Below the pieces are notes generated by a model. It searched no databases and was not told where the DNA came from. It saw only the letters and a program-made list of their open reading frames with translations. A DNA stretch of 56,874 nt, the filler included, from Jimgerdemannia flammicorona (lineage: Eukaryota), in the NCBI GenBank assembly GCA_003990765.1. It is 3 parts of 3 records of this genome, joined end to end, with 100 filler letters (N's around TTAATTAATTAA, not from the genome) between each part and the next. Parts side by side here need not be neighbours in the genome. Positions count along the whole stretch, not along the records: positions 37,990 to 56,874 come from RBNJ01002082.1; 2 more parts are not named here. One strand, written 5' to 3'. Shown piece after piece: positions 15,635 through 51,300 of the stretch. The position numbers and the translations under genes were made by a program. Position 1 is the first letter of the stretch, and every line of letters begins with the position of its first letter.

Positions 15635-15659
15635 TACTGCTGCCCTCAGAATTACTAGT

Positions 15660-16050: not shown

Positions 16051-16118
16051 ATTGTATAAGCCTGGGAATTTGAGTGAATAGGATGCTCCTGAGATGAATC
16101 ACCTATTCAGGAAGAAGA

Positions 16119-16580
16119 TGTGATGGCTGATCCGAATTAGTAATGAAACAGGGGAATTAGACATTTGATCATAGTACCTGAATCCAATTCCCAATATAGC
16201 ATAGCCTCATAAATAGTAGCCACATTCTGCAAAGTGCAGAAACTTTAATGTTTGCAAAGATTTAGGAGATGTTAGAATCTTCACAATCAGCAAAATCTTA
16301 GCAGATGTTAAAAGATTCAGTACTTGCAAAACAAGCCATTACTTAGCCACCTTATAGCTAGCAAACTTGTATAAATAACCCAGTATCTTAGAGTAAATAA
16401 ACCTCAGATTGAAATGGTTCAAAAGCAAAGAGATAGCAAAGGAACTAATAAGCCTGCAGGCAGATACACTTCGAACTCATCCATCCCTGCATCCCAAGAC
16501 TCCGAGGAGTCAGAGAAGATTAAGTATTCAAGATACAGAAATCCAATGTACTTTCAAGAGTAAGCATTTACTATATTACA
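16119..16580 (+). repeat. E2 3' LTR
   Basis: Direct repeat of 9871-10335. Confidence 0.95.
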
Positions 16581-17450
16581 ATATACTCTATATCTCTCAT
16601 AATCAATATATATCTAAGCTATTTATGAATACTTTAATATATATAAGTGAATGTAAGCCTATCAGTACTCCTATGAAAATATCTTTAAAGTTAAGGAAGC
16701 CTGAGACTGACAATGATAAAAACTATATCAATATTCTCTATTAATAAGTAGTCAGTTCCCTCATATATCTCATACTAGAAATAAGGCTCAATATTTCACA
16801 CACTATAAGATAGTATAGTACTTATTCTACCATAATTATTTATATTAGAGTACTATTAAAAGAATTTTCAGATATATTAAAGATATATTATACTATATAC
16901 TTACTCTCAGTAGATTGAGCAGGAGTAGTAAGGACAATAACATATAACTATCTGATATATATGATACTAATTGGGCTGGAGACTTATATAGATACATAAT
17001 TGCTGATCTATAACTAAGTACTTCTTTTAGTTAAATAAAGAGATTATATCTTAATAAATATATAAACAGAGTTAGTAGTAATATTATCTATACAAATAGA
17101 TTATCAAGTACTATATATCTACAGCAATAAAGAAAGCTATTTGGCTATACCAGCTATTAAAGAAACTCAACTTTGATCAAAAGACTCTATACTTATTCAT
17201 CTCTATTATTACTATAGTAAAGAACTCTATTTATTATGATAAAACTAAATATATTTATATATAATATATTATATAAGAGAATATATATATAGAGAATAAA
17301 ACTATATACTTGAAATATATATATTCTTATAGAGTATATAATTGTAGATTTACTTACTAAAGCTCTTTTAAGACCTAAATTCAAGTAATATACTAAAGAA
17401 ATGAGTCTTATAATAAACTATATACCAATAATAGAACTATATATTAGTAA
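16581..17450 (+). pseudogene. Degenerate Copia RT/RNaseH, part downstream of the E2 insertion
   Basis: SECKPISTPM, DTNWAGDL, KEAIWL and LLTKALLRPKF are colinear with the intact Copia at 29880-30740. Confidence 0.8.
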
Positions 17451-23790: not shown

Positions 23791-25958
23791 ACTTGGTAGC
23801 AGCAGTTTATAATCTAATTCTACTTCGAGATACTTCCTTACTCTACTACAAACTCCTCTGAGAATTCCTACAAGTTGGTATAAAGCCCAACCTCTGAACT
23901 GGAATTTATTCTGAACCATCTGACAATCTAGAGAGAATTGAACCTAATATACAAGGATAATTTAACCTCCACACCTGCAACAAGTGGGACAAACTTCACT
24001 CAAAGAAAGAAGTACTCTGATTAAATTAGCAAATAAGTGAATCTCTATTCACCAAACTCCTTGCACTACACCCAGCAAGTCAAGATGAAGAAGGTCTTAT
24101 AGAAGCCTTCTTTACTCTTCTCAACAAGAGTTTTGTCAGCTCTATAAATCCAAGTGACCTAGAATAACCAGCAGCAGTCTTTCTAGCCTTAGTTCCTCAT
24201 GAAGCCCAAGCCTCTATAGCCAAGTGGCTCAACTCTACCAACTTTCACCATACCAGGACCAAGACTGTGTTATACTACTAATTCCAGAACAGCAAGGTCT
24301 ACCATATTCTTAAAGAAGAAGCAAGAAAAACCCTTCATCAACTATCTGACCCTAAACCAGAAGCAGGCCCTACTATAGCCCTACCTGAATCTGAAACCAA
24401 TACCAAACCTGAACTTGACTTTGAATTAGGTTCATCTGAAATCAGATATACAACCAATTCTGTCTACTTTGACACTGAGCAAATCCAATTACATGGGGAC
24501 CAAACCAAAGAGAAGGAGGAGTATCTCAGTGAATTTAATCCTGGATACACTACCAAAGGAGATGCACCTCTATTAGGCCAGAACACACCTACACAACAAC
24601 AAACAGTTATCTATCAAGCCCTCACTCCAGACTCACAACTATTTCTCCAGCAACTTATATAGACCCAAAGAACCCCATCACACTCTACACCAGTACCTCA
24701 AGTAGTACCAGTAATACCACTACCAGTAGTCCAACTGCCTCCAGTAAACAATATGGTGAACCAACAGATTCTAGACCTCACAGCCCAGGTAGCAATAATG
24801 GCAGCAACCATTACTGCCTTAGCTGAACAGACCTGACCTACTAAAAATCTGAGCCTACCTACCTTCAATAGTACTGTACAAGAAGTCCAAAGCTTTATTA
24901 GTATAGTTGACACCAACTTCAAAGCCAATCAATAGACCAATGAGTGAGTTGCTGACCACCTTCTGACAAACAATCAAGACCACACTCTGGAACAACTCTT
25001 TGCTACTACCATAGTCTATGTCTGCCAAGTTATTATATTCTTCCAAGGACCTACTGAAGAATGGTGGTGAACTCTTTCTGAAAAACCCCTCACTTGGGAC
25101 ACCTGACCTGCAGTAGTTGCTCAGAATACAGCAAACAATGCCCCAGGATATAGAGCCCATCCTACAGCCCCTGGACTCAAACAACTCATGATTGCTCAAT
25201 ACCACAGCAAAACTATGATCACTGAATCTCAAGTAAAACTCCACAACCTCAAATTTGATATATATAGTAAAGAAGAATTTGAAACCTTCTGTACCAAACT
25301 CGAGTCACTCCTGAACACTATTGGCCTAGGATACATTGCCAATGATGAAGCATGAAATAGTATAAGAGCAGACTATTTATTTGATGTACTATCTGAATGG
25401 CTTACTAGAAAAATCCAAGAACAAGACTGCCCAGTTGGCTGTGATCACTAACAATGGTGCCTGGCAAGAATCAAGACTATGGTCAAGTGAATCCTAATAG
25501 CTGGACCAATTCTGCCTTAAAGACAATTCAATAACAAGGAAAAAACTTAGACCAAGAAAGAAGAACCCAAGCATGAAACATCCTGAGCTCTCTCCACATC
25601 CACCTCTTGGACAACCAGAAATCATGAACCCACCCAGCCAAGTACCTTCAAGAAACTCACCGAAGGAGAAAGGAATGAACTTCAAAGAAGTGGAGCATAC
25701 TTCTATTGCCGAAAGACAGGACACATGGCCAGTGCATACCCTAACTGAAAACCCCAAACAGCAACACAAGCAACTGTTACCACTCTGCATCACCTCAACA
25801 ACCTGACTACCAGAACATTAAACTTTATCAAGTTAAGGCAAACTGCCAAGACCCCAACCAAAGGAAGTCAAAAAGCAGCTGGATATGACCTATATGCAGC
25901 CAAAGAAGCTACAGTTTTCAACCAAGAAGTCAAGCAAGTCTATACAGGAATCAGTATC

Positions 25959-28900
25959 TATTGAGATTTCTAGCTAATCAACTCGGTATGTAGCTCACGT
26001 GAAGGTGGTGCAGCTCATGTGTGAGGACGTCATCAGTGGAAATGTCATCAACGCGTAAATACGCGCTTCGCACATATCAATAAAGATTGCTCCTTTATCT
26101 CTCAAATTCCAGTATTTCACAATAGGTTATGAGCCCCAGTTAGTGGCTAACCAAAACACCTCTTTAATATACGCTACACTACTCTACGTGCAAAAGAGAT
26201 GTCGAATACGCCAGGGAGTCCCTCGGCAGGTGCCGGAACGGGTACCGGAACGGGTGCCGGAATGAGTACCGGAACGGGTACCGGAACAGCCCCAGCGGCA
26301 ACTACTACGACCATCACGACGACGTCAATTCCAGCCCCAGCAGCTATTACAACAGTGCAAACGTCCAAGAGGTCCATCCCTGTCTTCGACGGGAAAGATT
26401 ATGCAATCTGGGCCTATCATATGAAGAATCTCCTTATCGAATGTGGCTTGGCGGACTACTGGAAGCCGCAAGCACAGATTACGGGATACAATGTCGCTAA
26501 CGACGAGAGAGCCTTATGCGAGATTACGTTCACACTATCTAACGCACAACTGAAACACGTCATCTATGCTACAACAGCAAACAAAGCCTGGGAGATCTTA
26601 CGCAATCTACACCAAAAGGACTCCGCCTTGAACAGATTCCACTTGAAATCGCAACTATTCAGCCTACGGATGAAGTCCAAGGAGATGATCCATGAATACG
26701 CCGATTGGGTTGACGAGCTGATGAATCACATTAATGCTCTAAGCGCACCAGCAGATTACATCAAGGACGATGACAAGGTCCTGGCCCTTACACGTGGCCT
26801 TCCCAAGGCATATAATATCGTTGTCATCGCGATGAGGGAGAGTGGTAAGCTTTCGGACTACAAACACGTGATAACGAGCCTCCAGAACATGGAATCTCAG
26901 GCACAGGAGAACGACGATGATGAAAGAGCACTCTACGGCTCGCGTGGACAAGGCAAAAAGCAGCGCAAGGGTCAACACGGCAAAAGCCAGCGCGACAAAA
27001 GCCAGCAAGGCCAAGACCAATCAGAGAAATTCGACAGGAGCTGCTATTATTGCGGCAAGTATGGACACCGTGCGAATGAATACATGAAAAAGGAAAAGGA
27101 CAAGGGTGGAAAGAAAGGAAAGAGTGGCAAGCAAGTGAATAGCGCAGATTCTAACGCCGATAAGGGAGGATTGTTCTTCGCCAATGTAGATTCGGATCCT
27201 TTTGGACCGGTCAAAAATGCGCAAGCCACCCCGACATCTATGAGATTTAGTTCTACATCCACCAGCGCCAGTTCTACCTGCAAATGCGCTTGCTCGACAT
27301 CTACGGAACCCGACATTCGGAATACTTTTCAAGGTGCAAAAAGTGGCGGTGACGTAAACAGCATGTGCACCAGTGCCAGAGACGAGTATACACCGAGCGC
27401 TAACATTGCATGCAATGAAGAGGACATCTGGCTCCTAGATTCGGGCGCATCCCAGCATATGACTTCACACCGTGAGTGGTTCTCTACGTACGAACCCTTT
27501 GACAACCCCGTGCATATCAGATTGGGCGATAATAAGGTTATATACGCTCAGGGGAAGGGCAACGTCAGTATGTATTTGCATGGAAATGTTAAGGAACCCT
27601 ACGCGACCTTTATGGACGTACTGTACGCTCCAGGGATAGGAAAGAACCTCTTCTCGATGGGTCGAACGCTAGCACGAGGGGATAAGCGAATCTCAGGAAT
27701 GTGCGATGGCGTGAAGATATACGATCTCGACGGCAAAGAAGCATTAACGACCAGGAAGCATGGATACTTATACGCAATAAACGGAATGCCGAGTGGCACA
27801 GCTGCAGCGAATGCAGCGTGGTCTGGAACGACCAGCGTAGCATATACCTGGCACCGGAGACTCGGACATATCAGCCTGACAAGCCTCGAACATATGATAA
27901 GGAACGGTTCAGTGAGCGGACTCCCGGACAACTTACGCCCGGACCATATGCCATGTGATGATTGCGCGATGAATAAGGCCTATCAACAACCCTTCCAGGA
28001 ATGGACGAAACGAGCCTCAGGGATACTCGATTTGGTACACTCAGACGTATGGGGACCTGTGAGAAATAAATCACACTCCGGGAAGAAGTATTTTATTACG
28101 TTCATCGACGACTATACGCGCAAGGTCTACGTATACCTTATGGCGGTGAAGAGCGAAGCTTTGGAAAAATTCGGAGAATACAAGGCTATCGTCGAAAATG
28201 AGACCGGACATAAAATTCGAGCACTACACTCAGATAACGGCAAGGAGTACGTTAATAATCAGTTCAAGAACTTCTTGACGAGACACGAGATAAAACACCA
28301 AACGATGGCTCCCTATACGCCTCAGCAGAACGGCGTAGCGGAGCGTTTTAACCGAACGGTAGTGGAGATGGCCCGTACAATGCTCAACGCGGCTGATCTA
28401 TCGAAGCCCTTTTGGGCCGAAGCGGTGAATACGGCGGTGTATATATGCAATAGGTGTATTTCTCGAGCTCTAAGCAAGGATGCTTGTGGCAACGATCAGC
28501 AATCCAGGAACGAGGATAATGCTATGCCACATCAGCTATGGAGTGGAAATCGGCCCGATATCTCACATCTACGCATATTCGGAAGCGAAGCCTACGTGCT
28601 AGATAAAAGCGGAAATAAGGATAAGTTTGATCCAAAGGCTACTAAGCATGTGTTCCTCGGGTATAGCAACGGTTGCAAAGCGTATAGGCTGTGGAATCCA
28701 AGGAAGCGGAGAATTATTAACTCCCGTAACGTTACATTCAAGGAACCTGGCGTACAAGATTCACACGTGAATATCGAGAAGATGACTACGATTACACATA
28801 CGCTTCTGGGAACGCCCCCAGCAATCAACCTTACGCCTCTGGCGGCCAGTACTACACCTCCGGCGAGTCCTCCAGTCACACCCCTGAAGACACCCCCGAA

Positions 28901-31244
28901 AATGTCACCTATCCCGGCGAGGATTCATTCGCCACCTCCTGGACCGAGGATAACTGAGATAAGGGATAGCGATGACGAGACTAGCGAAGCAGAGACGATT
29001 CTCCCATCTACGAAAGGTAAACAAAAGCACAAATCCAGGACATTGGATACGGATCTAGGAGACTATTGGAATGTTCCGAAGACCCAATGCAAGCATCATG
29101 TGAACTACACTTGCGAGTGCACATACTTGATAACGGTGGATCCACGATCATATGACGAAGCCGTATCCTCCCCTGATAGCAAGGAGTGGAAGCGAGCGAT
29201 GGATGAAGAGTATAATTCGCTCATCAGCAACGGTACTTGGGATCTAGTACCTCTTCCGAGGGATCGTCAAGCTATAGGATCTCATTGGGTATATAAAGTT
29301 AAGCGTCAAAGCGATGGAAGCGTAGAGCGGTACAAGGCACGCTTCGTTGCTAAGGGATATTCACAGGATTACGGCGTAGACTACGACGAGACGTTCTCTC
29401 CCGTATTCAAGCTCACTTCTCTATGCATACTACTGGCTATCGGCGCTGAGTACGATTACGAAATACAGCAGATGGATGTTAAGACTGCATTCCTGAATGG
29501 TGACGTAGATACGGAACTATACGTCCAACAGCCGCAAGGATACGAACTATACGACGGGCGGAAAGAGCTCATATGCAAACTACATAAAGGGTTATATGGA
29601 ATCAAGTAAGCGGCGAGACTATGGAATCGGAAGATCGATCAATATCTGCTTGACAACGGATTTCGGCGGTGCGAAGCAGATCCATGCATATATACGCGAC
29701 ATACATCCTCAGGAATGGTATACTTGGGGATATGGGTCGATGACATCATAATCGTTGGCAAGAGAAGCCAAGTTAACGAAGTAAAAGCTATGCTACGCCA
29801 GGAATTCGAGATGACAGACTTAGGCGACGCGTCCTTCTTATTGGGGATAGCGATTACACGTGACAGAAACGAGCGCACTATATACCTATCCCAAGCCACC
29901 TACGCTAAGCAAGTACTTGAATGATTCAGGATGAGCGATTGTAAGCCAGTGGCGACGCCAATGGAAACTACGACGAGGCTAAGGAAAAGTGACCCTACGC
30001 CCGACAAGAACATCCCCTATAGACAAGCGGTGGGATCCCTTATGTATCTTATGCAAGGAATGCGACCAGACATCTCCTATGCAGTAAACAAAGTGGCGCA
30101 GTATGCCTCATGCTATGACAACTCGCATTGGATGGCAATTAAGCGCATATTCAGGTACATCAAAGGAATAGCAGACTATACGCTCAGTTTGGGCGGTGAT
30201 AAAGGACAAAGCGGGAGTCACGTGCGTGTCTCCGGAGCTTGCGACGCCGATTGGGCCGGCGACCTCGACGACCGGCGCTCTACGACCGGATATCTCTTCC
30301 ATATCGGCAAAGGGGTTATCTCGTGGCAAACACGTAAGCAATCATCGGTGGCCACATCCTCTACGCAAGCGGAATATCAAGTGTTGTCCACAGCAACTAA
30401 GGAAGCCGTATGGCTACGGAAATTACTAAAAGAATTAGGGTATACTCAGGAATGAGACTCTACGCTGATCTTACAGGATAATCAATCTATGATTGCATTA
30501 GCAAAGAACCCTATACATCATGCAAGGACTAAGCATATCGACATTCAACATCATTATATATGCGAATGCATGGAAAATGGTACTATACGCCTGGAATATA
30601 TGCCAATGGAGTCTATGACGGTGGATTCTCTTACGAAGGCCCTTCCGAGGCCAAAATTCGAACACTGCGTGCAAGGGATGTGTCTTACGAGCAACCCTAT
30701 GCTACGGCCAGGATTCAGGGACCACCAACAACAACAATAATCGATGCAAATCACGAGACTTTCCTAATGGCGAAAAGCCTCCAACATATACATCTTACAT
30801 CCCCTATGAACATTGCACATCCGTACTGCATTTCTATTTGCAAGCAAGCAAGCAAACATTTCAAGCAGACATCCATTTCGGACATTCGGACTGTTTATCA
30901 GTTCCTAGCGCACTCTTTCTACTACGTATTCTACCTATTTTAGTGCTTATAAGCAGGGAATTCGGACATTTTTAGGTTGATAGATAGCACCCATTCTACC
31001 TATCGTTTCCTGCATTGCATTCATTAGTTAGCTAGCATGCATTTCTGCAGTTTGAGCGCATATCTCGTTGAGCGGGAGTGTTGAGATTTCTAGCTAATCA
31101 ACTCGGTATGTAGCTCACGTGAAGGTGGCGCAGCTCACGTGTGAGGACGTCATCAGTGGAAACGTCATCAACACGTAAATACACGCTTTGCACATATCAA
31201 TAAAGATTGCTCCTTTATCCCTCAAATTCCAGTATTTCACAATA
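25959..31244 (+). mobile_element. Young Ty1/Copia LTR retrotransposon
   Basis: 166-bp LTRs at 25959-26124 and 31079-31244, TSD GTATC, PBS GGTTATGAGCCC, PPT GAGCGGGAG. CpGs largely retained. Confidence 0.97.
26199..30740 (+). pseudogene. Copia gag-PR-IN-RT-RNaseH polyprotein with three premature stops
   Basis: 1136-aa ORF with WLLDSGAS, WHRRLGH, HSDVWGP, QQNGVAER and QMDVKTAFL. Same-frame continuation with WVDD, DADWAGD and KHIDI. Stops at 29607, 29922 and 30453. Confidence 0.95.
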
Positions 31245-34200
31245 GTATCCAAATTCCTGAAGAATATGTTGGAAGAATATGCTGTCACAGCAGCCTAGCA
31301 TTGAAAGGACTCTCAGTAGAAGGAGGAGTCATTGATGAGAATTACATAGGCGAAATTATTGTCCTCATCCAAAACTACAGTTGGACACCCTTCAAGATCC
31401 CCATTGATTTCTATATTGCTCAGATTCTATTCGAAAAAATTGAGTTAATACTAATAGTCAAGGAAGTCCCTGAACTACTGCTCACTATCCAAGGATCCAA
31501 AGGATTTGGTTCATTGAACAAGGCCCCAGCCCAACTAACCATGAACAAAGAAAAACAATTCTACAAGAAAATTAAAGATGGATATATATCAAGTGGCCAA
31601 TGCCTCCATGGTATTGAAATGTACTCTTCCTGAATGATTGATGATTACTTCTATTGTATCAATGAACTGGCTCAAAGAAGAACCAATAAAAGCTCCTACA
31701 ACTGAAATCACCACCTTTGAATCAGACAAACTACTTACACTTCAAGCTTTTGTCAACTGAGCATCTGTCAAGATTATGATAGACAGTGGTGCCTCAGACA
31801 ACTTCATCAATGAAGAAACAGCCAACAGACTCAAGGTCTTCACATCTCCAGTACAGCAAACTCAAGCAGTTGCCACAGCCAATGGAACCTCACATGTTAT
31901 TAGCAAGAAAGTCCACAATCTACCCTTCTGAATTGGTGACTACTGAGTACATGTTACCCTCCAAATTGTACCACTTCCTGACAATAAAATCATTCTTGAG
32001 ACTCTATGGTTAAAACAAGAAAACCCTATGATTGATTGGGTAAACCATTCTCTGACCATTAAGAAAGGATGCCACAACTTCAAACTGTAAAGTGAAAAGG
32101 ACCCACTCAACTCTAGTGACCCTAGACCAAAGATCACTTACATCAACAAGCTATAACTCAAGAAATTGGCCAAGAAATGCCCTCTTTTTGCCATCTCCAT
32201 CCATCCATCCAAAGGAGAACTCAAGAACTCTGAAGAAGACTTTTCCAAAGTTGACAGCTGTGTTAGACCCTTACTTCAGAAATTCTGAGACATATTCCCA
32301 AAGAAGCTTCTGAAAGGCCTACCACCTAAACAAGCAGTAGATCATGCCATCAAGACTATCCCAGATGCCAAACTAGCCTTCAAGTCAATCTACCATATAT
32401 CTCTAAGAGAAATTAATGCACTCAAGAAGGAAATCGACGAACTCCTAGAACAAGGATTTATCAGACCCAGTATATCACCCTATGGTACACCAGTCCTCTT
32501 TGTTGTCAAGAAAGGAGGAGACCTATGAATGTATATTAATTATGGAGACCTCAATGAACAGACCATTAAGAACTATTGCCCACTATCAAGAATCAATGAA
32601 ATATTTGATAGGCTCACCAATCTGCAATTCATGAGCTCTTTTGACCTGCGAAATGGTTACTGACAAATTGCTATGAAAGAAGAAGACATCTACAAGACAG
32701 TCTTTCAAACTTGCTATGGACACTTTGAGTTTCTGATTATGCTCTTTGGCTTAACTAATGCTTCTACAATCTTCCAAACACTGATGAATACTATCCTGTA
32801 CCCATACCTGGACAAATTCGTTATTATCTACATTGATGACATCCTAGTCTTCAGCAAAACCCTGGAGGAATATCTTGAACACCTTGAACTAGTACTACTG
32901 AAACTCCGAGAAAACCAACTCTTTGCAAAACTCAGCAAATGTGAATTTCTCCTGAAAGAAATTCAATTCCTTGAACACATTGTTACTCCAAATGGAATCA
33001 AAGTAGACCCCAGCAAAATCTCTATAATCAAGGATTGGCCCAGACCCAAGAAGCTGAAAGATCTCCAGTCATTTCTGGGATTAGCAAACTATTACTAGTG
33101 ATTTGTTGCCAACTTTGCCAAAATCGCTACTGCTCTTACCCAAATGACCAAGTACAGCAAGAAAGAAGAACAACCCTGGACCTCAAAATAAGAGAAAGAC
33201 TTCAACAATCTTATAAATTAGGGACCTAAGCAAGATACCACCTTTCAAGCACTGAAGGATGCCTTGATAACCACTCCAGTACTTCAAGTAGTAAATCCTG
33301 CCCTACCATATGAAGTCACTACTGATGCCTCTGACCTAGCTCTTGGAGCTGTGCTCATACAAGAAGGACACCCTGTGGCCTACTACTCCCACAAGTTCAA
33401 TGATGCCAAAATTAACTATACAACCCACAAGAAGGAAATGCTAGCCATTGTAGACACTCTGATCAAATAGTGACCATACCTAGAAGAAGTACACTTCACT
33501 GTATTGACTGACCACAAGTCATTAGTCAACATCAAGACCCAGGCTACCCTTTCTCGAAAGCAAGCCAGATGGATAAAAGTTCTCACCAACTTTGACTATG
33601 AAATCCAGTATCACTCTAGTAAGGAAAACATTGTTGCTGATGCAATCTCCAGACCACCAATTGAAGAAGTTATCCAAACCCTCACTTTGGTTACAAACTT
33701 CATCATGGAACAAATCATCACAGCATATGCTGATGATAAAGAAGCTTAAGCACTGTGAGAAATTCTGAATAGTGACAATACTAATAAGTATACTCAGTAT
33801 AACCAATACTAACTAAAGGACAATACTATCTATTACAAGGACAGATTGTATATTCCAAACAACTGAGATCTCTGAAGGACTATTCTATTTGAATGTCATA
33901 ATACCCCTACAGCTGGATATTTAGGATTTGACAAATGCTATGAGGTCATCTCTCAAAACTTCTATTGGCCCTATATAGCAGATCAACTAAAGACCTACAT
34001 CACTTTCTGTGATGCCTGCCAATGGAATAAGTCCTCAACACTAGCAAAACCTAGCTTACTCTACTCTATCCCAGTACCATCTGCTAATTGGGAACAAATC
34101 TCTATAGACTTTATTATACAACTACCCTAAACCAAGAACAGAAAAGATGCAATTGTTGTCTTTGTGGACTATCTCAGCAAACAAGCCCACTTTATACTAA

Positions 34201-35600
34201 CTACCACTACTGTAACAGCATCAGATATAGCTACACTCTTGTTTGACAACATCTTCCACTATCATAGTCTTCCTAAGATCATTGTTAGTGACTGAGATCC
34301 AAAATTCATCAGTCATTTTTGGAAAGCTCCTCTATATATACCTTGGAATGAAACTTGCACTATCCACAGCCTTTCACCCTGAAACTGATGGCTAAACTGA
34401 AAGAATGAACTGAACTCTGGAACAAATGCTAAGGAACTATGTTTCCTACAGACAAGATGATTGACATGAACACCTTACTATAGTCAAGTTTGCCTATAAC
34501 AATAGCAAGCAAGCCTCTCTTGGAATAACCCTGTTCTTCACCAATACTGGACAAAACCCAAACACCCCTTTGACACTCATCCAAACTACTGAAGAACTCT
34601 CTACAGTCGAAGCTATTAAAGAATTCTTACTCTGAATGTGTAATCTAAGCCAGATCACAATTGAGAACTTATCACAAGCTCAAGAACAACAGTCACAGTA
34701 TGTTAACCAACACTGCTGAGAAGAAACCTTTGATATTGGAGAAAAAGTTCTACTAGACATCCAAGGATACTGAGTTGACAACCTCAAATACAGACTATCT
34801 ACAAAGCTGAACAACAAGTTCATTGGACCATTCAAAGTTATTGTACAAGTCTCTCCAACCTCCTACAAATTGGTGCTACCAGATACTATTAAGATTTACC
34901 CAGTCTTCAATGTCCAACATCTCAAGTAATATAATGACAATGATGATGAACTATTCTCAAACTGAACCATAGAACCACCTATACCTGTCATTATTAATAA
35001 CTAGAAAGAATACAAAGTTGAACAAATCCTCAACAAATATGGCCACAAGAACCATCCTGAGTACCTTGTCAAATGGAAAGGTTACCCAATCCATGATATC
35101 ACATAGAAACCTGAGACCAATCTCTAGAATACTACTGACTTGGTTCAGGAATATAATTTCTTGAACAACTGAAATCTGAATACTCTGACACCTATCAGTA
35201 CATACTATATATTACTCTCCTGAATATTATACTATCATAAACAAAATCAAGAACTCAGCAAGTTAAGACAAAAGAATACTGACCCTTTAGAAAAATAGCA
35301 AAACTGAAAGCAAGTCTATTCTCCCCATACCACTGGTGGGAAACGAGGTGTAGACATTTAAGAAGATTCCTTAGAGGAAATTCTCCAGCAGTGAATGATG
35401 TCAGAATCACTTCCGGTGTACGGCATCAAACACATAACTCTTTAATGTATGAATCCAATGCATTAGGCAACTGTACTACAAGCATGCCACTTTCTGAAAA
35501 AATGGACTTCACCAGACTTTTGACTCCTCAAATAGTGTAACAACACTAGAACAAATTAGAAGGCCCCAATAAGAATATCGAAAGCTAAGAAGGAGAGAGT

Positions 35601-38705: not shown

Positions 38706-39496
38706 TGTAATAGAATGATGAACGACAAATGATCACATGACCTGGCGATGACGTCATCATATGATCGAGCGCAGCATATGAATAATGAGTGACGAATGAA
38801 TGAATGATATGAAACAATGTGGAAAACAATATCCAGCTTATCCCTAACAATCAGCACCACAGCAACAGTTGCCATAGTTGCTGATCATTGCCTAGTAATT
38901 GAGGTCCTGATCATAAAGTTGTTTTTGCTAAAAACCACCTGACAAAGGTCGCGATCACAAACCTCACTATAGCTACCAAATTAGTCACTCATACTTTGGT
39001 CAGAAATCATGGACCAACTTGTATAAATACCCCCCAGTTTCTATCCAAAATAAAGTAGTTTTAGTTCAGTCCTTGATATAAGAATCAAGTCCCCCCACAC
39101 ACACATCCCCCTGAGTCTTAGTAATGACATCTAAGTGACTCTAGTGTTTCTGACTAAACTCCAGAAGCCTAGCTAACTTCTGCCAGAACTGAGACTGGTA
39201 TATAAATCCCCAAAGACTTAAGTAAACCCATTGAACCTGAATTCCAAGGCGAATTCAGTCTGTGCACAGCAAAGAACAAGACCCTCAAAATAGGGCACAA
39301 GAGAAAGACCTTTGAAACAGAAGGCAAACCAGAGAAAGACCTTTGAAAGATAAGGCACTGCCACTACAACTACTTAAGCGAGTGTTTCCTCAAACTGAAG
39401 ACTTCTTGGTACACATTGTGTACTAAGTCCCTAAGTAATAGTCTACTTCCCTCTTATCCTAAGGATAAGAGAGGGGTAGAAGTGAGAGTTATTACA
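38706..39496 (+). repeat. E4 5' LTR
   Basis: TGTAATAG...TATTACA, direct repeat of 47061-47851. Confidence 0.95.
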
Positions 39497-39499
39497 ACT

Positions 39500-42400
39500 T
39501 AGTAGCAGCGGATTACCAGCCAAGAAGGCACCAAAGAGCATACTCCTAAAGTTGGAACAAGACCAATCTTGGACAGGAGTAACCCCCAGAAACAACTGTG
39601 GATCCTCAAACCAGAGCTAGAGAAGCCCTTGCCATTAGGACCAGGTGGTACCAGGAAACCACAGACCCAAGGACCCACTAGCTTGTAATTGACCAGGCTT
39701 ACAAGGATCTATACCAGGCCTTTAGGACATACCACCCAGGACTTAGGAATATTGTTAGCCGCCATAGGTTCTACGAACTCCTCCGAGGATACATTGGAAC
39801 TACTAGGATCCCAGAATCTACTGCTGCAGCCACCCAGGATTTTCTAGATTATATTACACCCCCTGCTGCAAGAGAAGCAGCTGCCGAGTGGATTGCCTCT
39901 GACAGATATCATCATACACCAACCAAGACCTCCCTCTATTACAGGCTAGTTATACATATACTATGCCTCTGCCATAACTAGGTACGAGAACGAGCAAGCA
40001 GGTCACCCATCCCCTACTGCTGAACAAGGAGCAGGTCCATCAATCCAGCCAGAGACTGATATCCTCTTTGAAGGACCTAGTCAGTATAAGGACGCACTAT
40101 CTCATCAGGGAAGGGAGTCAGACGAAGACCCTACAGGCTACCAGTCTGACAATAGCCAATGAGGAACAGCAGGCCTAGGAATTTACCAAGGAACTACAGG
40201 TCAAGCAGATCAGACCCCAGAACCAACTCAGCCACCTATACAGAGATTTGGTTTACCCTCTCTCACAGAACTCTTTGACTTAATATCCGGAAATCAAGTA
40301 ACTCCAAGTCATACAGCCCCACAACCCCACCAAGTGGAACAATCTTCAAGAGAATCCACCCCAACAGGCCCACCACCAATAGTCAACACAATGGTAGATG
40401 CCAACATTACAGTACTGACCACCCAGCTAGCAGCACTAGCAGGGATAGTAGGACAGATTGCTGAACAGAACAAACCAACCAAGACCTTGCGAATCCCAAC
40501 ATTCAGTGGAAAAAACAGTGACATCGAAAACTTCATCAATGCAGTTGACACAGGCTACCAAGCAAACCAATGGAATGACAACTGAGTACCTATAGGAATG
40601 CTCACCAATAACCAGAACAGCACCCTTCAACAGTTGTTTGCTACATCAGCAGCACAAGTAGAAACAGTAGCCACATTCTTCACTGGAACAGCAGCCGAAT
40701 TCTGGCGAACCTTGGAACAACACCCAGTAATCTGGGAAGCCCACCCTCAAGTCAATGGATAAGTACCTAGCAACAATAGACCAGGTTGGGATGACTACGA
40801 AGCAGGCCCAGAACTCAAGGCCTTGCTACTGACCAAATTCCAAAATGCAGCCTACATATAAGAAACTTGGAACAAACTGTCCCAGATGAAGTTCCACAAG
40901 AATGGCGAAGAGGATCTAGAGACCTTTGCCACCAGAATGGATGCCTATCTCAAAACTGTTGGACTTACCTATCAGAAAAACAATCTGGCCATCAATGGTA
41001 CTAGAGCCAACCATCTCTTTGCAGCCCTACCAGACTGGCTCACCCAGAAGATCAAGGAATAAGGTCTTCCCCAAGGATGCCCCCACAACTCATGGTGCTT
41101 TGCCCAAGTACAAAGAAGAGCCTGCGAAATCCTTGCTGCACAAGCTCCACAAAACCAAGAACACAAGAAGGATAACCAAGATAGAAGAAATTCTACCAGG
41201 AGAAATGATCAAAGGAATGACCAAAGATATGATCAAAGATATGATCAAAGGAACCAGTGAAACCCCAGAGGACCCAGACCTCCCACTGAGGATGAAAAGA
41301 GGCAGCTCTGTGAAAAAGGATTGTGCTTCATCTGCAAGAAGGCAGGACACATCTCAGTCAAATGCCCCGAGAAGAGAAACAGATCAGGCAAACCCAGTAA
41401 CCAGAACATTACTGTCATTGGAGAAGGCCCAGGAAAGAAGAACCCCAAGAATGTCATCAAAGTACAGAAGATATGGTACAAGGCTACCATTCCCACTAAG
41501 ACCCACTCAACTAATGCTGGATATGACCTCTACAGCAGCCAAGACCTCACCATCCCACCAAGTACCAATGCTACAGTGCAAACAGGAATTACAATACAAG
41601 CCCCCAGAGGTACATACATCTACCTTGCTGAGCAAAGTAGCCTAGCCAAAGAGTTCAACATTGGGCTAGGAGGAGGAGTAGTTGACCAAGGATTTACTGG
41701 TGAAATCCATGTCATCTTGCGAAATTTTGGAGACACATCATTTGAAGTCAAAGCAGGCCAAAGAATTGCCCAAGCAATCATTGAAGAAATCCATCAAGAT
41801 CTCACTATTGAAGAAGTCCCCGAACTCTCCCAGACAGACCATGGCAAGAAAGAGTTTGGATCTACCAACAAACCTCTCAGTCAAAAGGTCACTACCTTGA
41901 AGGAAGATGATGAAAACTGGTACAAGAGAATTGCAGATAGTTATGCACCATGTGGATGATGCCCTCATTCCATTCGAATGTACTGCATGGAACATGTTAG
42001 TGAATGCCATGCATGCCTCTTCAAGGTTTTCAAAATCAACTCTGAAAGAAGCCAAGCTCAACAGACTGAGGAACCCAAACAAGATGACCCTCCTTGTGAA
42101 GGATGGGGAGAAACTGACTTCGAGGAGACTGACAGCAATTGGGACAACAATGAGGATGAAGAGCTCAATACCATCAAGAAGGAGGACAGTTGCATCAAGT
42201 TCACAGGCCAAGTCTACAGACAAAATGTCAATGTCTTGCTTGATAGTGGTGCTACTGGAAACTACATCAGCACCAAGACTGCTAAGAGGATTAGAGCCCG
42301 AAGCAGACCAACTACTGAGAAAAGAAGTGTTACCTTTGGTGATGAAAAGACTGCACCATTGACCAAGATCTGTGAAGACCTTTTGCTCAAAATTGGCAAA

Positions 42401-45400
42401 TATCAAGAGAAGTTGGACTTCAGCATCGTAGACCTCTCAGGACAAGAAATTATCTTAGGAAAAGCCTGGTTGACCCAGCACAACCCAGACATTAACTGGA
42501 GAACCAATGAGGTTAACCTGACCCACAAAGGCAGAAAGATCACCCTGACACCCCAGGAAGATACTAACCACCAAGGAATCAAAATCATCTCTGCCATTCA
42601 AATGAAGAGACTCTCTCAAAAAAAGGGAAACACCTACTTCATCTGTACAGTACAAGAAGTCACTGAAGCTACAAGTAGTCCAATTCCAACAGAAGCTCAA
42701 GAACTGTTTGAAGAATTCCAAGATGTATTCCAAGATCCTCAAGGACTTCCACCCAAGTGCCAAATCCAACATGGAATTGATCTTATTCCAGGATCTGAAC
42801 CCCCATACAAGAGTATTTACCAACTGGCCCAACCTGAGCTCAAGACCCTCAAGGATGAGTTGACCAAACTACTGGCCCAAGGATACATTGAACCCAGCCG
42901 CTCTCCATTTGGAGCCCCCATTCTATTTGTCAAGAAGAAGGATGGCTCTCTGTGAATGTGTATTGACTATAGAGCCCTCAACAAGATCACTATCAAGAAT
43001 CAGTATGCCTTGCCCAGGATTGATGAGTTGCTACACCAAATCTTCAAGGCCAAGACCTTTTCTCTACTGGATTTGCGAAATGGCTACCACCAGATTCTCA
43101 TTGATGAGAAGGACATTGAAAAGACAGCTTTCCGAACATGGTTTGGACACTACCAGTTCTGAGTCATGCCTTTTGGATTGACCAATGCACCAGCAACATC
43201 CCAGTATCTGATGAATGACATCTTTAGACCACTCCTCAACATCTGTGTCCTTGTGTATATTAATGATATACTAATCTACAGTGAGACAGTAGAGCTACAC
43301 TACACCCATCTCAGACAAGTACTGACTCTTCTGTGAGAACACCAGCTCTATGCCAAGATGAGCAAGTGTAAGTTCTACCAAGACCAGATTGAATACCTAG
43401 GACACATTATCTCTGCTGAAGGTATTAATGTAGACCCCTAAAAGGTATCAGCCCTTAAGGATATCCCTATCCCTACTACCCTCAAGCTACTCCAGTACTT
43501 TCTGGGTATTGCCGGTTATTACCAAAGGTTTATCCAAGGATATTCTGCTATTGCAGCCCCATTGACCAGCTTGGCCCATAAAGGAGTAAATATCAAAGCT
43601 GAATGGACCCCTGAATGCACCCTGGCTATGGACCATCTCAAGAGACTCCTTACCGAGGCCCTGGTGCTAATTGCACCTGACCCTACCAGACCATTCACTC
43701 TGACCACAGATGCCTCTGATATTGCTATTAGAGCAGTACTCAGTCAAGAAGACCACTCAGTGGCCTACCTTTCACAGAAGCTCAAGCCAGCTGAGACCTG
43801 GTATACTACTCATGAGAAGGAACTCCTGGCTATTGTCACTGCACTCCAGGAATGGCACCACTTCCTCCTAGGACAGCCATTTGTAGCCTACACTGATCAC
43901 CATGCACTGCAGTATATTCACATACAGCCCATGCTGACCCACAGACAAGCCCGCTGGATGGAAATCATTGCCAACTTTGATATGGAAATCAAGTATATCC
44001 CAGGCAAAACCAATTGTGTGGCTGATGGTTTCTCCAGATACATGGAAGACGAACTTGTCTTCATGGTCAAAGTAATTGGAGACCTTATCCAAATGATCAA
44101 GGATGGCTACCAGCAAGATAGCCCCCTGATGAATTTCCTTCAATTCTGCCAAGACCTAGAGGCTGAGGTTCCAGAACCCATGAGGCAAATGGCCAAGAGA
44201 TTCACCTACCATGATGGACTTATCTACAGGGACCATGACAGAGTGGTTGTACCCAACAATGATACTCTGCAACTCAAGATCATGCAGGAACTCCGTGATA
44301 CTCCTACAGCAGGACACTTTGGTTTTGAAAAGACCTACAACCTCCTCTCAAGAGAGTTCTACTGACCAAAGATGACCAAGGATATCAAAGACTTTGTGGC
44401 CTCATGCAAGATGTGCCAAAGGTTCAAAAGTGGTAACAAGCTACCAGCAGGACTCCTGCAACCCTTGCCTATCCTGAGTCACAATTGGGACCAGATTGCA
44501 ATAGACTTCATTGTCCAACTCCCCAAGACCAAGGCAGGATGGGATGCCATTATGGTATTCATGGACCGCCTAAGTAAGCAAGCCCATTTTGTACCCACTA
44601 AGACCACTGCTACAGCATCAGAGATTGCCAAGATTTTCCTCAATCAAGTATTCAGGCTACATGGTATGTCTAGCACTATTGTATCTGACCGAGACACCAA
44701 GTTTATAAGCAACTTCTGAAAGGTATTTTTCTCCCTCCATGGAACCAAGCTGAAGTTCTCTACTGCCTACCACCCTCAGACTGACAGTCAAACTGAGCAA
44801 ACAAACAGGACTCTTAAACAGATGCTGAGCATCTTCTGCTGTTACAAGCAAAATGATTGGGACAAGTACCTAGCCCATGCTGAGTTTGCCTACAACAACA
44901 GTCAGCAAACCTCCACAAAGAAGACTCCATTCTTCCTGAACTATGGCCAACACCTAAGGACCCCAAGTACTACCGCGAAATCAGCAGTCCCAGCAGCCCA
45001 AGATCTGGCCAAGACCATTTCTGACCTCACCCGAATGACAAGAGATGCTCTCATAGAAGCACAAGACTACCAGACCAAGTATGCGAACTTGAAGCAAAGA
45101 GAAGCCTCCTACAATATTGGTGACAAGGTCATGCTTAGAACAGACCACCTCCACCCAGACACCCTGGCCCAACAACCAGCCAAGAAACTCTATGCTAGAA
45201 GAATTGGACCATATAAGATTGTGGAAAAAATCAGCGAAGTCAACTACAAGTTGCAACTTCTCTACAATATCCGAGTACACCCAGTATTCCATATCAGCCA
45301 ATTGGTGGACTACCATGAGAACCCATTCTCCAAGTATACAGTTCCACCACTACCCCCAATTAGGATCAATGATCATGAGGAATTCAAAATTGAGGAAGTA

Positions 45401-45583
45401 CTTGACCACAAGGTCTGCAAATATCCCAAAACAGTCAAGTGCTTTTTCCTGATCAAGTGGAAGGGTTACCCCACCCATGATGCTACCTGGGAAAAAGAAG
45501 AAGCCCTGAAGAATGCACATGAAGCCCTCCAGGACTACATGGAAACACTCACCCCCCAGCAAAGGAAGAAACTACAGCTCTAA
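39500..45583 (+). pseudogene. E4 extended gag-CCHC-dUTPase-ZnF-PR-RT-RH-IN-chromodomain
   Basis: Track ORFs 40334, 41321, 41978, 42956, 43562, 44372 and 44822 share one frame. Motifs [44 protein letters not shown] and FLIKWKGY. Start position uncertain. Confidence 0.93.
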
Positions 45584-46153
45584 GCATAGGAGCATACAGC
45601 GAGCAGAAGGATACCATATATTTTATCTGGAAACATATAATACCAAACATTGTGAAAAAAGGAACACTATAGATAACCAATAAGAAGATACTAAGCAAAA
45701 GAACAATCTAGTACAGTACAGCAAAATACATTTGAACAACTCCATTTCATGCCATCTGTGTCATCTCTGCAGGATGATGACGGATGCTTCATGTGAAACT
45801 TAGGAAAGCCGACAATGTCGAAACCAGTCTAAGTCCATCCATGTGACAGATATTGTTACTAGGAATTGCCTCAGATTACAAGAAAAGTCTATTTCCAAGA
45901 GGTTCGAACCTCCAGCCATGACAATGGGAGCCCTTGCCCTAGACAAGGATGGCTAGTCCTCGCAAATGTGCCAACCAGACAAAAAAAAAGTGGACCAAGA
46001 CCTGTTAACCCTGTGTAACCACAACTATGGGTGATGAGATCTTTGAAATCAGAATTTTCTCATGTGACCAGCACATGCTCTGCTTATAGCACAGGTCATA
46101 CATTTTGCCAGAAAGCGTGACCAAAGGAAGGTCACATCAGATGGGTGAATAAG

Positions 46154-46161
46154 TATAAATA
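46154..46161 (+). promoter_or_regulatory. Internal TATA box upstream of the E4 accessory ORF
   Basis: TATAAATA ~70 bp before ATG 46226, conserved in E5 (~54213) and preceded by decayed E-box-like CACATG/CATGTG motifs. Confidence 0.55.
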
Positions 46162-46225
46162 CCCAAGGCAAGAATACCCCGCAACTCTCATCTCCCTTTC
46201 CTCACAAAGAAAAGACAAGACAAGA

Positions 46226-47049
46226 ATGCCTGCCACCTGCCACCAAACTGCCCGCCATAGCCAGCCCCTCCCAAGCCAGGTTGACTGCCTCTTTGGACAC
46301 ATCCAGGTTGCTATCCAAGGAAGGAACTGCCACTCAGAGGCCCTTAACCTCTCCAGCTCAGACCTAGGACAGTATGTCCTTGACTGCTGTGAAATTATTG
46401 AAAGAGCCTACCTTGCTACCAGCCACCTAGAAATCTGGCACGAATATGAAATCGGTCACCAGCTCCTCCAACATATAAGTGGCCTACCTACAGACCAGAT
46501 CTCTGACTGGACCCACCTAGACAGGCATGAGCAAAGACTTGCTAAGAAGGTCCATCAAATCATGTGCCATGCACCCTTCGCGATCCCCAACCTCAACTAC
46601 ATACAACTAAAGGACTTCCAGAACCTCTCTTTCCTGAGGTCGATGACCTAGAGATCAAGGTAGCCCAAGAAGCCAACTTCTGGATCACCCCTAAGTCTAT
46701 TGACTGCGAACCCTACTGGAGCCCCCTCCTGAATGACAACCCTGACCAATGGCTCCAAGGTCTCTCTGACCTCTTTGAAGGACCACCTATTCAAATGGAT
46801 ATTCCCAGGCATGAAGATCAAGAGCCCTACTTGGATGGCCCCAACCACATCAGATGGAGAACTCCTACACCTATTCCAATGCAAGAACCATTTGCAGACC
46901 TCATTGACTTCTCCATCCTGGACAGCGAGCCATCTGCAACCACCAACCCCCCTACCTCTGAAGAAGAGAGTAATGACCCTGAGGAGGATTCCCCACCTTT
47001 CTCTCCCCTGGTTCTCAATTTCTCAATCAACGAGGACATTGATTTCTAA
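46226..47049 (+). pseudogene. E4 accessory protein (~274 aa after repairing a 1-bp deletion)
   Basis: Track ORFs 46145 and 46564 join at ~46632; the E5 copy reads NLSFSKIDELE in frame there. The stop codon abuts the PPT. Homologous to the E1 LTR ORF over more than 200 aa. Confidence 0.85.
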
Positions 47050-47060
47050 GGGGGGAAGGA

Positions 47061-47851
47061 TGTAATAGAATGACAAACGACAAACGATCACATGACCCGG
47101 TGATGACGTCATCATACAATTGAGTGTGGCATATGAATAACGAGTGATGAACGAATGAATGATGCAAAACGACATGGAAAACGATATCCAGCTTATCTCC
47201 AACAATCGGTGCCACAGCAACAGTTACCATAGTTGCTAATTATTGCCTAGTAATTGAGGTCCTGATCACAAAGTTGTTTTTGCCAAAAACCACCTGATAA
47301 AGATCGCGATCACAAACCTCACTATAGTTACCAAATTAGTCACTCATACTTTAGTCAGAAATTATGGACCAACTTGTATAAATACCCCTCAGTTTCCATC
47401 TGAAATAAAGCAGTTTTAGTTCAGTCCTTGATACAAGAATCAAGTCCCCCCACACACACATCCCCCTGAGTCTTAGTAATGACATCTAAGTGACTCTAGT
47501 GTTTCTGACTAAACTCCAGAAGCCTAGCTAACTTCTGCCAGAACTAAGACTGGTATATAAATCCCCAAAGACTTAAGTAAACCCATTGAACCTGAATTCC
47601 AAGGCGAATTCAGTCTGTGCATAGCAAAGAACAAGACCCTCGAAATAGGGCACAAGAGAAAGACCTTTGAAACAGAAGGCAAACCAGAGAAAGACCTTTG
47701 AAAGATAAGGCACTGCCGCTACAACTACTTAAGCAAGTGCTTCCTCAAACTGAAGGCTTCTTGGTACACATTGTGTACTAAGTCTCTAAGTAATAGTCCA
47801 CTTCCCTCTTATCCTAAGAATAAGAGAGGAGTAGAAGTGAGAGTTATTACA
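47061..47851 (+). repeat. E4 3' LTR
   Basis: Direct repeat of 38706-39496. Confidence 0.95.
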
Positions 47852-48219
47852 ATACTCCTGAGAAGTTAGAATAAGACTAATCTTAGACAGGAGTAACCCC
47901 CAGAACCAACTATAGATTCTCTAGAAACAAACCCCCAAACCAGAGCCAGACAAGTCTTTACTATTAGAACCAGATGGTACTAGAAAACCACAGACCCAGG
48001 GATCCACTATCTTATAATTGACCAAATATATAAGAATTTATACTAGGTCTTTAGAACTTTCCACCCAGGTCTTAGGAATATAGTCAGCTACTGTAGGTTC
48101 TATATACTTCTCTATAGCTACCTTGGAACTACTAGGACTCAAGAATCTACTGCTGTAGCCACTCAGGAATTTCTGGATTATATCTTACCTCTGTTGCAAG
48201 AGAAGTAGCTGCTAAGTGG

Positions 48220-48354: not shown

Positions 48355-51300
48355 GTAGCTGCTAAGTGGATTGTATCTGATAGATACTATCATACTCCTA
48401 TCAGGACCTTCCTCTACTACAGGTTAGTTGTTTACTATATCTCTACTATAACAAAATATAAGAACAAGCAAGCAGACCACCCATCTCCTACTGCTGATCA
48501 AGAAGCAGATTCATCTATTCAGCCAGAATCTGATATCCTCTTTGAAGGACCTAGTTAGTATAAGGATACACTATTTCATCAGGAAAGGGAGTCAGATGAA
48601 AACTCAGAAGGATACTAGTCTGACAATAGTTAACAAGAAACAGCAGGTCTAGGAATTTATCAAGAACCTATAGATCAAGAAGATCAGACCCCAGAACTAA
48701 TATATTATCTATACAGAGGTTTGGTTTACTCTCTCTCACAGGACTGTTTGATCTGATATCTGGAAATCAAGCAACTCCAAGTCATACAACACCACAACCT
48801 CACCAGGCAGAACAATCTTTAAGAGAATCTACCCTCATAGACCCATTACTAATAATTAATACAATAGTAGATATCAATATTATAGCTCTAACTATCTAGC
48901 TAGTCACACTAGCAGAGATAGTAGGATAAATTGCTGAATAGAACAAACCAACCAAGATCTTGAGAATTTCTACTTTTAGTGGAAAAAACAATGATATCAA
49001 AACTTTCATCAATATAGTTAATATAGGATACTGAGTAAACCAATGAAATAATAACTAAGTACCTACAGGAATACTCACCAATAACTAAGACAATACTCTT
49101 CAATAGTTATTTGTCACATCAGCAGTACAAGTGAAAACAGTAGCAATATTCTTTACTAGAATAGTAGCTGAGTTCTGATATATTTTGGAAGAATATCCAG
49201 TAATCTGGAAAGACTGCTCTCAAGTTAATGGATAGATAACTACCCATAACAGACTAGGTTAGAATAACTATATAGTAGGCCCAGAACTCAAGGCTCTACT
49301 ACTGACCAAATTCTGAAATACAGCTTATATATAAGAAACTTAGAACAAACTGACCCAGATAAAGTTCTACAAGAATAGTAAGAAGGACTTAGAAATCTTT
49401 GCTACTAGGATGGATATCTATCTCAAAACCATGAGACTTATCTACTAGGAAAACAATTTGGCCATCAATAGTACTAGAGCTAATTACCTCTTTATAGCCC
49501 TACTAGACTGGCTTACCTAGAAGATTAAAGAATAAGGTCTCTCCTAAGGATATCTCCACTACTTATAGTACTTTGCCCAAGTATAAAGAAGAGTCTATAA
49601 AATTCTTACTATATAGGTACTATAAAATCCAGAATACAAGAAGGATAACTAAGATAGAAGAAATCTCATCAGGAGGAATGATCAAAGAAATAATCAAAGG
49701 AATGACTAAAGAAACCAGCAAAACTCTAGAGAACCAAGACCCCCTACTGAGGATAAAAAGAAGTAGCTTTGTGAAAAAGGATTGTACTTTATTTACAAAA
49801 AGACAGAACACATCTCAGTCAGATACTCTGAAAAGAGAAACAGACCAGATAAATTCAATAATCAGAACATCACTATCATTAGAGAAGGCTCAGAAAAGAA
49901 GAATCTTGAGAATATTATCAAAGTGCAGAAAGTATAATATATGGCTATCATCTCTACTAAGACCCATCTCACTGATACAGGATATAATCTCTACAGTAGC
50001 CAAGATCTTACTATTCTACCATATACTAATACTATAGTGCAAACAGAGATTGCAATACAAGCTCCCAAAGAAATGTATATCTATCTTGCTGAGTGAAGTA
50101 GTCTAGTCAAAGAATTCAACATTGGGCTAGAAGGAAAAGTAGTTGACCAAGGATTTACTGGTGAAATCTGAATTATCTTATAAAATCTTAGAGACACCTC
50201 ATTTGAAGTCAAAGTAGGTCAAAGAATTGTCCAGACAATTATTGAAGAAATCTGTCAAGATCTTACTATTAAAGAGTCTCTAAACTCTCCCAGATAGACC
50301 ATAGCAAGAAAGAGTTTAGATCAATCAATAAACCCCCTAGTCAAAAGGTTACTATCATGAAGAAAGATGATAAAAACTAGTATAAGAGAATTGCAGATAG
50401 TTATGTACCATATAGATAATACTCTCATTCTATCTAAATATATTATATGAAATATATTTGTAAATATCATGCATACCTCTTTAAAGTTTTCAAAATTAAT
50501 TCTAAAAGACACCAAGCCTAACAAATTGAGAAATCTAAACAAGATTACTCTCTTTGTGAAGGATGGAAAGAGACTGACTTTGAGGAGACTGATAGCAACT
50601 GGGATAATGAAGATGAAGAACTCAATACTATCAAGAAGAAGGATAGCTATATCAAATTTACAGACCAAGTTCACAGACAGAATATTAATGTCTTACTTAA
50701 CAGTAGTACTACTGGAAACTATATCAGTACTAAGACTATCAAGAGAATTGGAGCCAGAAGCAGACCAGCTACCAAAAAAAGAAGTGTTATCTTTGATGAT
50801 AGCAAGACTACATCTTTGACCAAAATCTGTAAAGATCTATTACTAGGATTGGCAAATATCAAGAGAAGTTAGATTTCAGTATTGTGGATCTTTTAGAACA
50901 AAATATTATTCTAAGAAAAGCCTGTGACCCAGTATAACTCAGATATCAACTAGAGGACCAATGAGATTAATCTGATCTATAAAGATAGAAAGATCACTCT
51001 GATACCTCAGGAAGATATCAACCATCAAGGAATCAAAATTATCTCTACCATTCAAATGAAGAGACTCTCTTACAAAAAAGGAAATTTCTACTTCATCTGT
51101 ACTACATAAGAAGTCACTGAAGCTCTAAGTAGTCTAATCTTATTAGAAGCTCAAGAATTGTTTGAGGAATTCTAAGATATATTCTAGAATTCCCAAGAAC
51201 TTCCACCCAAGTACCAAATCCAATATGGAATTGATCTCATTCCAGATTCTGAACCTCCATACAAGAGTATCTACCAGCTGGCCCAACCTAAACTCAAGAT

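Follow-up and report, generated by a model that had tools for sequence, protein, structure and literature searches.

A small Cys/His module of about 45–50 residues, here called Z, occupies the junction between protease (PR) and dUTPase in Ty3/Gypsy retrotransposons of Jimgerdemannia flammicorona. With the ligand spacing C-x-H-x12-C-x2-C, Z is a real, conserved and apparently undescribed domain within a known kind of element. The window, by which we mean the whole stretch of DNA analysed (56,874 nucleotides, filler included), consists of stacked, decayed LTR retrotransposons, as judged by self-comparison and Pfam, and contains five Gypsy elements, E1–E5, every copy of which carries stops. In E1–E4, LTRs flank gag-pol and Pfam gives the order PR-RT-RNase H-integrase, as in Ty3/Gypsy elements; LTR pairs across the window elements are 86–92% identical. 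E3 and E4 are chromoviruses, with a chromodomain (PF00385) at the integrase C-terminus. No PF00385 chromodomain was found in the integrase frames of E1 and E2, which were scanned one each with stops read as X. The features are located as follows.

538..8741, minus strand: element E1, LTRs at 538–1484 and 7799–8741, 86% identical
4557..4952, minus strand: E1 dUTPase, downstream of Z (Pfam and profile limits)
5076..5225, minus strand: Z of E1 (profile)
5340..5665, limits approximate, minus strand: E1 protease, decayed, upstream of Z (read from translation and family copies)
9871..16581, plus strand: element E2, LTRs at 9871–10336 and 16119–16581, 92% identical
11791..12138, plus strand: E2 protease, upstream of Z (PF08284, E 7e-9)
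12259..12408, plus strand: Z of E2 (profile)
12526..12921, plus strand: E2 dUTPase, downstream of Z (PF00692, E 5e-23)
about 21710–37663, plus strand: element E3, containing a Copia element within its dUTPase
25836..31522, plus strand: E3 dUTPase, split by the Copia element at about 25959–31247
31544..31693, plus strand: Z of E3, four-ligand type (profile)
31746..31997, plus strand: E3 protease, downstream of Z (PF13975, E 1e-9)
35011..35157, plus strand: E3 chromodomain (PF00385, E 1e-9)
38706..48219, plus strand: element E4, LTRs at 38706–39891 and 47061–48219, about 90% identical
41321..41371, plus strand: E4 Gag zinc knuckle, NC (PF00098, E 0.0028, under cut-off)
41474..41872, plus strand: E4 dUTPase (PF00692, E 6e-31; limits by profile)
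41903..42052, plus strand: Z of E4, first Cys codon at 41960 and last at 42014–42016
42206..42475, plus strand: E4 aspartic protease (PF13975, E 2e-8)
45383..45544, plus strand: E4 chromodomain, past the integrase (PF00385, E 5.5e-12 to 1e-11)
49935–50312, plus strand: E5 dUTPase (profile)
50363..50512, plus strand: eroded Z of E5, E4 family (8.9 bits; Cys codons read Tyr)

Four peptides quoted in an earlier, sequence-only reading of this DNA, from E1–E4, are present where it had placed them. The position it assigned to the module, between PR and dUTPase, was borne out as PR-Z-dUTPase-RT in E1/E2 and as NC-dUTPase-Z-PR-RT in E3/E4. It had also credited E3, E4 and E5 alike with the module; E3 and E4 do carry it, but E5, which lies behind E4 and is an E4-family copy heavily mutated by C>T/G>A changes, retains only an eroded trace. 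In E4, Gag, dUTPase, Z and PR form one reading frame, with a single in-frame stop in Z immediately ahead of the first Cys. The E3 copy of Z has its third Cys replaced by Tyr and one stop within it, and a frameshift occurs ahead of the protease. In E2, Pfam also places a zinc knuckle ahead of PR. Pfam called the dUTPase and RT of E1; its protease was assigned via an E1-family copy, which is 76% identical to the E2 protease. The relaxed pattern C-x-H-x12-[CY]-x2-C occurs five times in the six frames of the window, four times within Z, whereas 100 local shuffles averaged 0.3 occurrences and never yielded more than 2.

The motif as originally proposed holds for the outer four ligands. The E1, E2 and E4 families, however, usually have six Cys/His residues (C-x-H-x5-C-x2-H-x3-C-x2-C), and the E3 family keeps the outer four only, with Ser and Met as the middle pair. 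Window copies have lost some ligands through C>T/G>A decay. By scanning the 231-Mb host genome assembly, we collected the best-matching copies of each family (30 for E4, 30 for E2, 25 for E1 and 25 for E3, of many more). The Cys/His residues proved conserved within families: ligands 1–4 are kept in 142, 136, 141 and 136 of 146 gap-free genomic copies, a conservation that is somewhat overstated because the 146 loci are the best-scoring matches and a few overlap. Where a ligand is lost, a single transition to Tyr (C>Y or H>Y) is almost always responsible. Z is under purifying selection, with pN below pS in 15 of 15 family pairs; between two E2-type subfamilies, pN was 0.06 and pS 0.56 for Z, and 0.06 and 0.40, respectively, for the dUTPase. 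The net charge of the 50-residue module is −1 to +2 across six families. From the invariance of the Cys/His ligand pattern, we infer that Z very probably binds one zinc ion through four ligands, and it would fold as an independent unit. A further PR-Z-dUTPase family, E6 (L168, L171), occurs in the same genome and belongs to the non-chromodomain lineage.

Opposite orders and the probable exchange of Z

In the RT tree as in the protease tree, the elements fall into two lineages with 100/100 support, in keeping with the two deep Gypsy lineages recognised at the outset. The RT of E1/E2 groups apart from that of E3/E4 (100/100), and layout tracks lineage in both trees. In these fungi, Z is an accessory that a dUTPase-carrying Gypsy element may have or lack. 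Family F5 (L112–L130 and L132–L140; 28 of the 30 loci of one search) has the order NC-dUTPase-PR without Z and falls with E3/E4, and P0144 has PR-dUTPase-RT without Z and falls with E1/E2. The idea that dUTPase and Z travel as a fixed unit therefore fails, as both lineages include a dUTPase without Z. Since the place of the dUTPase is lineage-specific with or without Z, Z simply occupies the PR-dUTPase junction, and the mirror order is a lineage-specific dUTPase position combined with Z filling that junction, not a flipped cassette. Inversion of the DNA is ruled out, every part lying on the coding strand.

We consider it highly probable that the lineages exchanged Z laterally in the distant past, through old recombination. 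Between E4 and E1/E2, Z is 61–63% identical over 41 positions, as against 37–42% for the dUTPase, 40–43% for RT and 24–26% for the protease. Given this contrast, and since Z is rare and sits in opposite positions, lateral movement is the simplest account, and the module exchange suggested by the sequence-only reading is upheld in that sense. E3 and E4 share 60% identity in RT and 41% in Z, and proteases compared across the two lineages are 21–27% identical. Third codon positions are 45–56% identical between families; synonymous sites are thus saturated, and a recent DNA transfer of Z is rejected. The same saturation would suit a Z inherited from an ancestor common to both lineages and lost elsewhere, as would the weakness of the tree tests. 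Such a history is nonetheless very unlikely, given that the RT and protease lineages split at 100/100, that only 15 Z relatives were found in 1.84 billion protein representatives although chromodomain Gypsy elements are widespread, and that the opposite protease sides imply that Z moved at least once.

The trees leave separate movement of Z unproven. A clade of the E3 and E4 modules was not rejected (p-AU 0.26), and a single clade of all Z-linked dUTPases was neither shown nor rejected (p-AU 0.40). A single clade of all modules in the Z-dUT order (Z ahead of the dUTPase) was narrowly rejected (p-AU 0.036 over 50 columns), a result that appears to depend on P0012. An acidic linker, considered as proof that E4 gained Z from the E1/E2 lineage, was discarded as not specific: its shuffle p was 0.006–0.02, and relatives in the dUT-Z order scored equally well (P0005, p 0.014; P0010, p 0.002).

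The dUTPases of E1–E4 score above the PF00692 cut-off. Trimeric dUTPases share five conserved motifs, and stretches resembling these were seen by eye in the family copies. In the dUTPase alignment, the Asp, Arg-Ser, Gly-x-Asp and Gly-Ser columns are invariant. By the Pfam match and these motifs, the element enzymes are assigned to the trimeric PF00692 family. Cellular dUTPases, including the host gene, form a branch of their own (100/99, or 92/95 under the mixture model), with the element enzymes outside it and 31–44% identical to the host dUTPase; therefore, the element dUTPases were not recently captured from this host. The cellular-type dUTPase L111 (L111:1495-1917, minus strand) is nearest to Mucoromycota proteins, the closest being a Jimgerdemannia flammicorona protein at 94%. 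It has unusual residues near motif 2, and the locus may be a decayed copy instead of a working gene.

Relatives, predicted fold and known systems

A profile search of 1.84 billion protein representatives returned 19 matches, 15 of them true Z; the other four (P0011, P0016, P0018 and P0019) were dropped as repeats or unrelated proteins. Twelve of the 15 have a dUTPase in the same reading frame, eight as dUT-Z and four as Z-dUT, one of the latter (P0017) with its dUTPase called by our own dUTPase profile only. The remaining three, at 63–157 aa, are too short to tell context. A second search added three dUTPase-Z proteins. All ten Z relatives looked up are environmental sequences that either lack a name or bear an automatic one, with P0001 near the E4 family and P0003 near the E2 family. 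Three Cys are shared by all 15 distant members and the His by 14, and non-ligand residues are also retained (Glu in 13, Gly in 13, Pro in 14, Met in 13 and Tyr in 11–12). The linker between dUTPase and Z in dUT-Z forms measures 5–27 residues. Among elements long enough to judge, none has Z without a dUTPase. A viral source of Z is unsupported, as none of 25 pattern matches on viral contigs was confirmed as Z, and two metagenome-contig loci were set aside as chance matches. Two environmental relatives have longer Cys/His-rich spacers at the PR-dUTPase junction. In P0145, residues about 313–551 comprise three tandem, shorter C-x-H...C-x2-C units, whose score against Z was reached by 0 of 1000 shuffles; with P0145 as query, no spacer of this type was found in this genome. 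The spacer of P0143 (residues about 635–670) contains another Cys-rich motif, which was rejected as a Z homologue because 103 of 1000 shuffles gave an equal score.

AlphaFold, run twice with alignments of 13 and 16 rows, folded Z with confidence (pLDDT 90.3 and 89.6) and with identical secondary structure each time. The predicted outline comprises a helix, a hairpin with C-x-H in its loop, a short helix, and a long helix that starts with C-x2-C. A treble-clef finger arranges a knuckle, a hairpin and a helix about one zinc, with one pair of ligands supplied by the hairpin loop and the other by the first helical turn. We take the outline of Z to recall such fingers, and its C-x-H and C-x2-C presumably echo the second zinc site of RING. 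The secondary structure agrees with a treble clef, but the best structural Z-score, 3.1, was to unrelated helical proteins, and Pfam scores for treble-clef and RING models were weak, scattered and under cut-off (best E 0.002–0.04). As a RING finger Z fails: a RING has eight ligands arranged as a cross-brace, and Z has four to six with a different spacing, the C1/C2 pair, an N-terminal C-x2-C, is absent, Pfam scores fall far under cut-off, and fold searches returned no such match.

The sequence-only reading did not recognise the motif, and Pfam, PDB and fold searches likewise gave no library match. Z reached no Pfam model cut-off (13 and 15 members scanned), and a PDB sequence search returned zero matches at E up to 10. 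Foldseek against PDB and BFVD gave no match under E 1.9, and the VIA structural search reached Z-scores of 3.1 and 2.3 at best, to unrelated helical proteins. The best PHROGs match was to an unnamed family (E 0.003), and the ESM Atlas returned one weak match at 0.76 and a blank for the other query. These fold-search blanks are no proof of a new fold. Z is not a member of the retroviral CCHC knuckle family (C-x2-C-x4-H-x4-C, PF00098), with 0 matches in 13 and 15 members, nor does it match the HHCC zinc domain of the integrase N terminus (H-x-H...C-x2-C, PF17921), which the elements carry elsewhere.

Ty3/Gypsy elements bearing a dUTPase are known from Postia placenta (PosPlaTy3-3, -4 and -5), Phanerochaete chrysosporium and Tuber melanosporum (Tmt1), and their dUTPases, like those of retroelements generally, are thought to exclude uracil from new DNA (PMC2864245). 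Depending on the family, the dUTPase of such elements lies at the Pol amino terminus, between PR and RT, or at the carboxyl terminus, and the first two positions are both reported from Postia (PMC2864245). The first position resembles that in E3/E4 and the second that in E1/E2, so NC-dUTPase-PR, which had been taken for the betaretroviral layout, is not exclusively so. Both dUTPase layouts are already published for fungal Gypsy elements, and what is new here is apparently Z: unlike in our elements, a Cys/His module at the PR-dUTPase junction goes unmentioned for the Postia, Phanerochaete and Tuber elements in the available text of PMC2864245. A literature search of mainly open papers, with Repbase outside its scope, gave no description of Z; the primary papers cited by PMC2864245, or supplements, could hold one. 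The Postia, Phanerochaete and Tuber hosts are Dikarya, whereas here the host cellular dUTPase is nearest to Mucoromycota, and here, unlike in those elements, a non-chromodomain lineage shares the module. Entomophthora repeats are enriched in dUTPase (bioRxiv 10.1101/2023.09.13.557621). The available text of PMC3248453 does not mention dUTPase, and PMC9289625 provides context only.

The NC-dUTPase-PR order of E3/E4 is also like that of the betaretroviral NC-dUTPase of M-PMV and MMTV (PMC4531489, PMC1802613), whose fused NC has been proposed to hold the dUTPase where RT works (PMC4531489). As in those viruses, a putative zinc domain is fused to a trimeric dUTPase. The betaretroviral domain, however, is a basic CCHC nucleocapsid whose fusion needs a frameshift, whereas Z is a separate, near-neutral domain with other ligand spacing that stands on either side of the dUTPase. 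Juno LTR elements of bdelloid rotifers have a dUTPase between PR and RT and then an extra zinc knuckle (PMC5408684). Compared by its description, that motif is a 'knuckle' placed after the dUTPase, whereas Z does not match PF00098.

With Z, the few accessory domains of Gypsy polyproteins gain a small, unnamed member that possibly has a new zinc-site arrangement. Z also clearly exemplifies a module common to chromodomain and non-chromodomain lineages within one host group. If it places or partners the dUTPase, it offers a small, tractable protein for asking why this enzyme is kept by some retroelements; failing a function, it chiefly helps repeat annotation in early-diverging fungi.

Possible roles of Z

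We tentatively favour the reading that Z binds zinc and serves the dUTPase as an adaptor, though this could well prove wrong. The hairpin loop, with C-x-H, and the beginning of the long helix, with C-x2-C, would together hold a single zinc. After the protease cuts the polyprotein, Z would most likely remain on the dUTPase, and it could then hold the dUTPase trimer at the site of reverse transcription through contact with nucleic acid or with a further protein of the element. The dUTPase precedes the protease in the chromodomain lineage and follows it in the non-chromodomain one, and Z fills the junction in both. An adaptor is suggested by the analogy with NC-dUTPase, by the lack of any long Z protein without a dUTPase, and by the 5–27-residue linker. 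A tether to nucleic acid is weakened because Z is near neutral (−1 to +2), unlike the basic NC, and a second tether looks redundant because the dUTPase of dUT-Z elements already has NC immediately upstream.

Counting against an adaptor of the dUTPase, Z adjoins the protease as constantly as it does the dUTPase. It could instead serve the protease, timing its dimerisation or the self-cleavage of the polyprotein. Wherever an element is long enough to judge, Z borders the protease, with only about 17 residues between the two in E3, and a trimer-forming dUTPase and a dimer-forming protease would conflict in assembly when joined in one chain. Yet proteases from different lineages share only 21–27% identity and Z faces their opposite ends, a protease with Z and no dUTPase was never seen, and F5 and P0144 link protease and dUTPase directly, so that this role appears rather unlikely. 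Z might also be a folded spacer that has no partner and insulates the two enzymes, in which case any small zinc fold would suffice. The optional presence of Z in both lineages agrees with this, as does the occupation of the same junction by other Cys-rich stretches (that of P0143 being not significantly Z-like). A spacer is, however, unlikely in view of the non-ligand positions conserved over 15 distant members and of the rate at which Z changes, which is no faster than that of the adjoining enzyme.

Z could alternatively act on a host protein, to control uracil alongside the dUTPase or to counter silencing; the host uracil-DNA glycosylase, for instance, might be blocked or diverted. Z would then travel with the dUTPase since the two meet one need. 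Its travelling with the dUTPase in either order, its near-neutral surface with an acidic linker behind, and the three tandem short units of P0145, such as multivalent adaptors often have, are compatible with this, and so is the strong C>T/G>A decay of elements in this host. That decay, however, fits post-insertion host methylation or RIP-like mutation and is uninformative on Z; moreover, there is no sequence or fold likeness to known inhibitors, and conservation this strong is unusual for an arms-race surface. We regard host-directed action as improbable, and we see only a slim chance that Z is a mobile host-directed zinc adaptor, forming with the dUTPase a two-part uracil-control kit swapped and rearranged between distant lineages.

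Further features of the window

E5 directly follows E4 (47061–54755) and seems to use the E4 3′ LTR in common. Relative to E4, it has 492 C>T/G>A changes as against 102 in the opposite direction, with the frequency highest at CG (0.67) and then at CA (0.45), a pattern resembling that of methylation or RIP, here in a host of Mucoromycota type. A Gag motif, C-x-H-x2-W-C, located upstream of the NC knuckle, is conserved in E3 (window positions 25420–25450), E4 (41070–41100) and P0021, and is absent in the F5 Gag stretches inspected. In E4, the roughly 1.3 kb from the chromodomain to the 3′ LTR (45740–47050) contains two open frames, at 46121–46648, without a Pfam match, and at 46546–47046.

The Copia element inside the E3 dUTPase (25959–31247) has LTRs of about 165–169 nt that are 94–96% identical, and an open frame of 1152 codons; by eye, its LTRs end in TA...TA, not the usual TG...CA, and are flanked by a 5-nt target duplication. 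At the left end of the window (166–554) is a 33-nt tandem repeat of about 12 units, and ahead of E3 (21144–21545) a 184-nt inverted repeat with arms separated by 34 nt. Just past E5 (54791–55534) lies an inverted partial copy of an E3-type LTR, about 90% identical.
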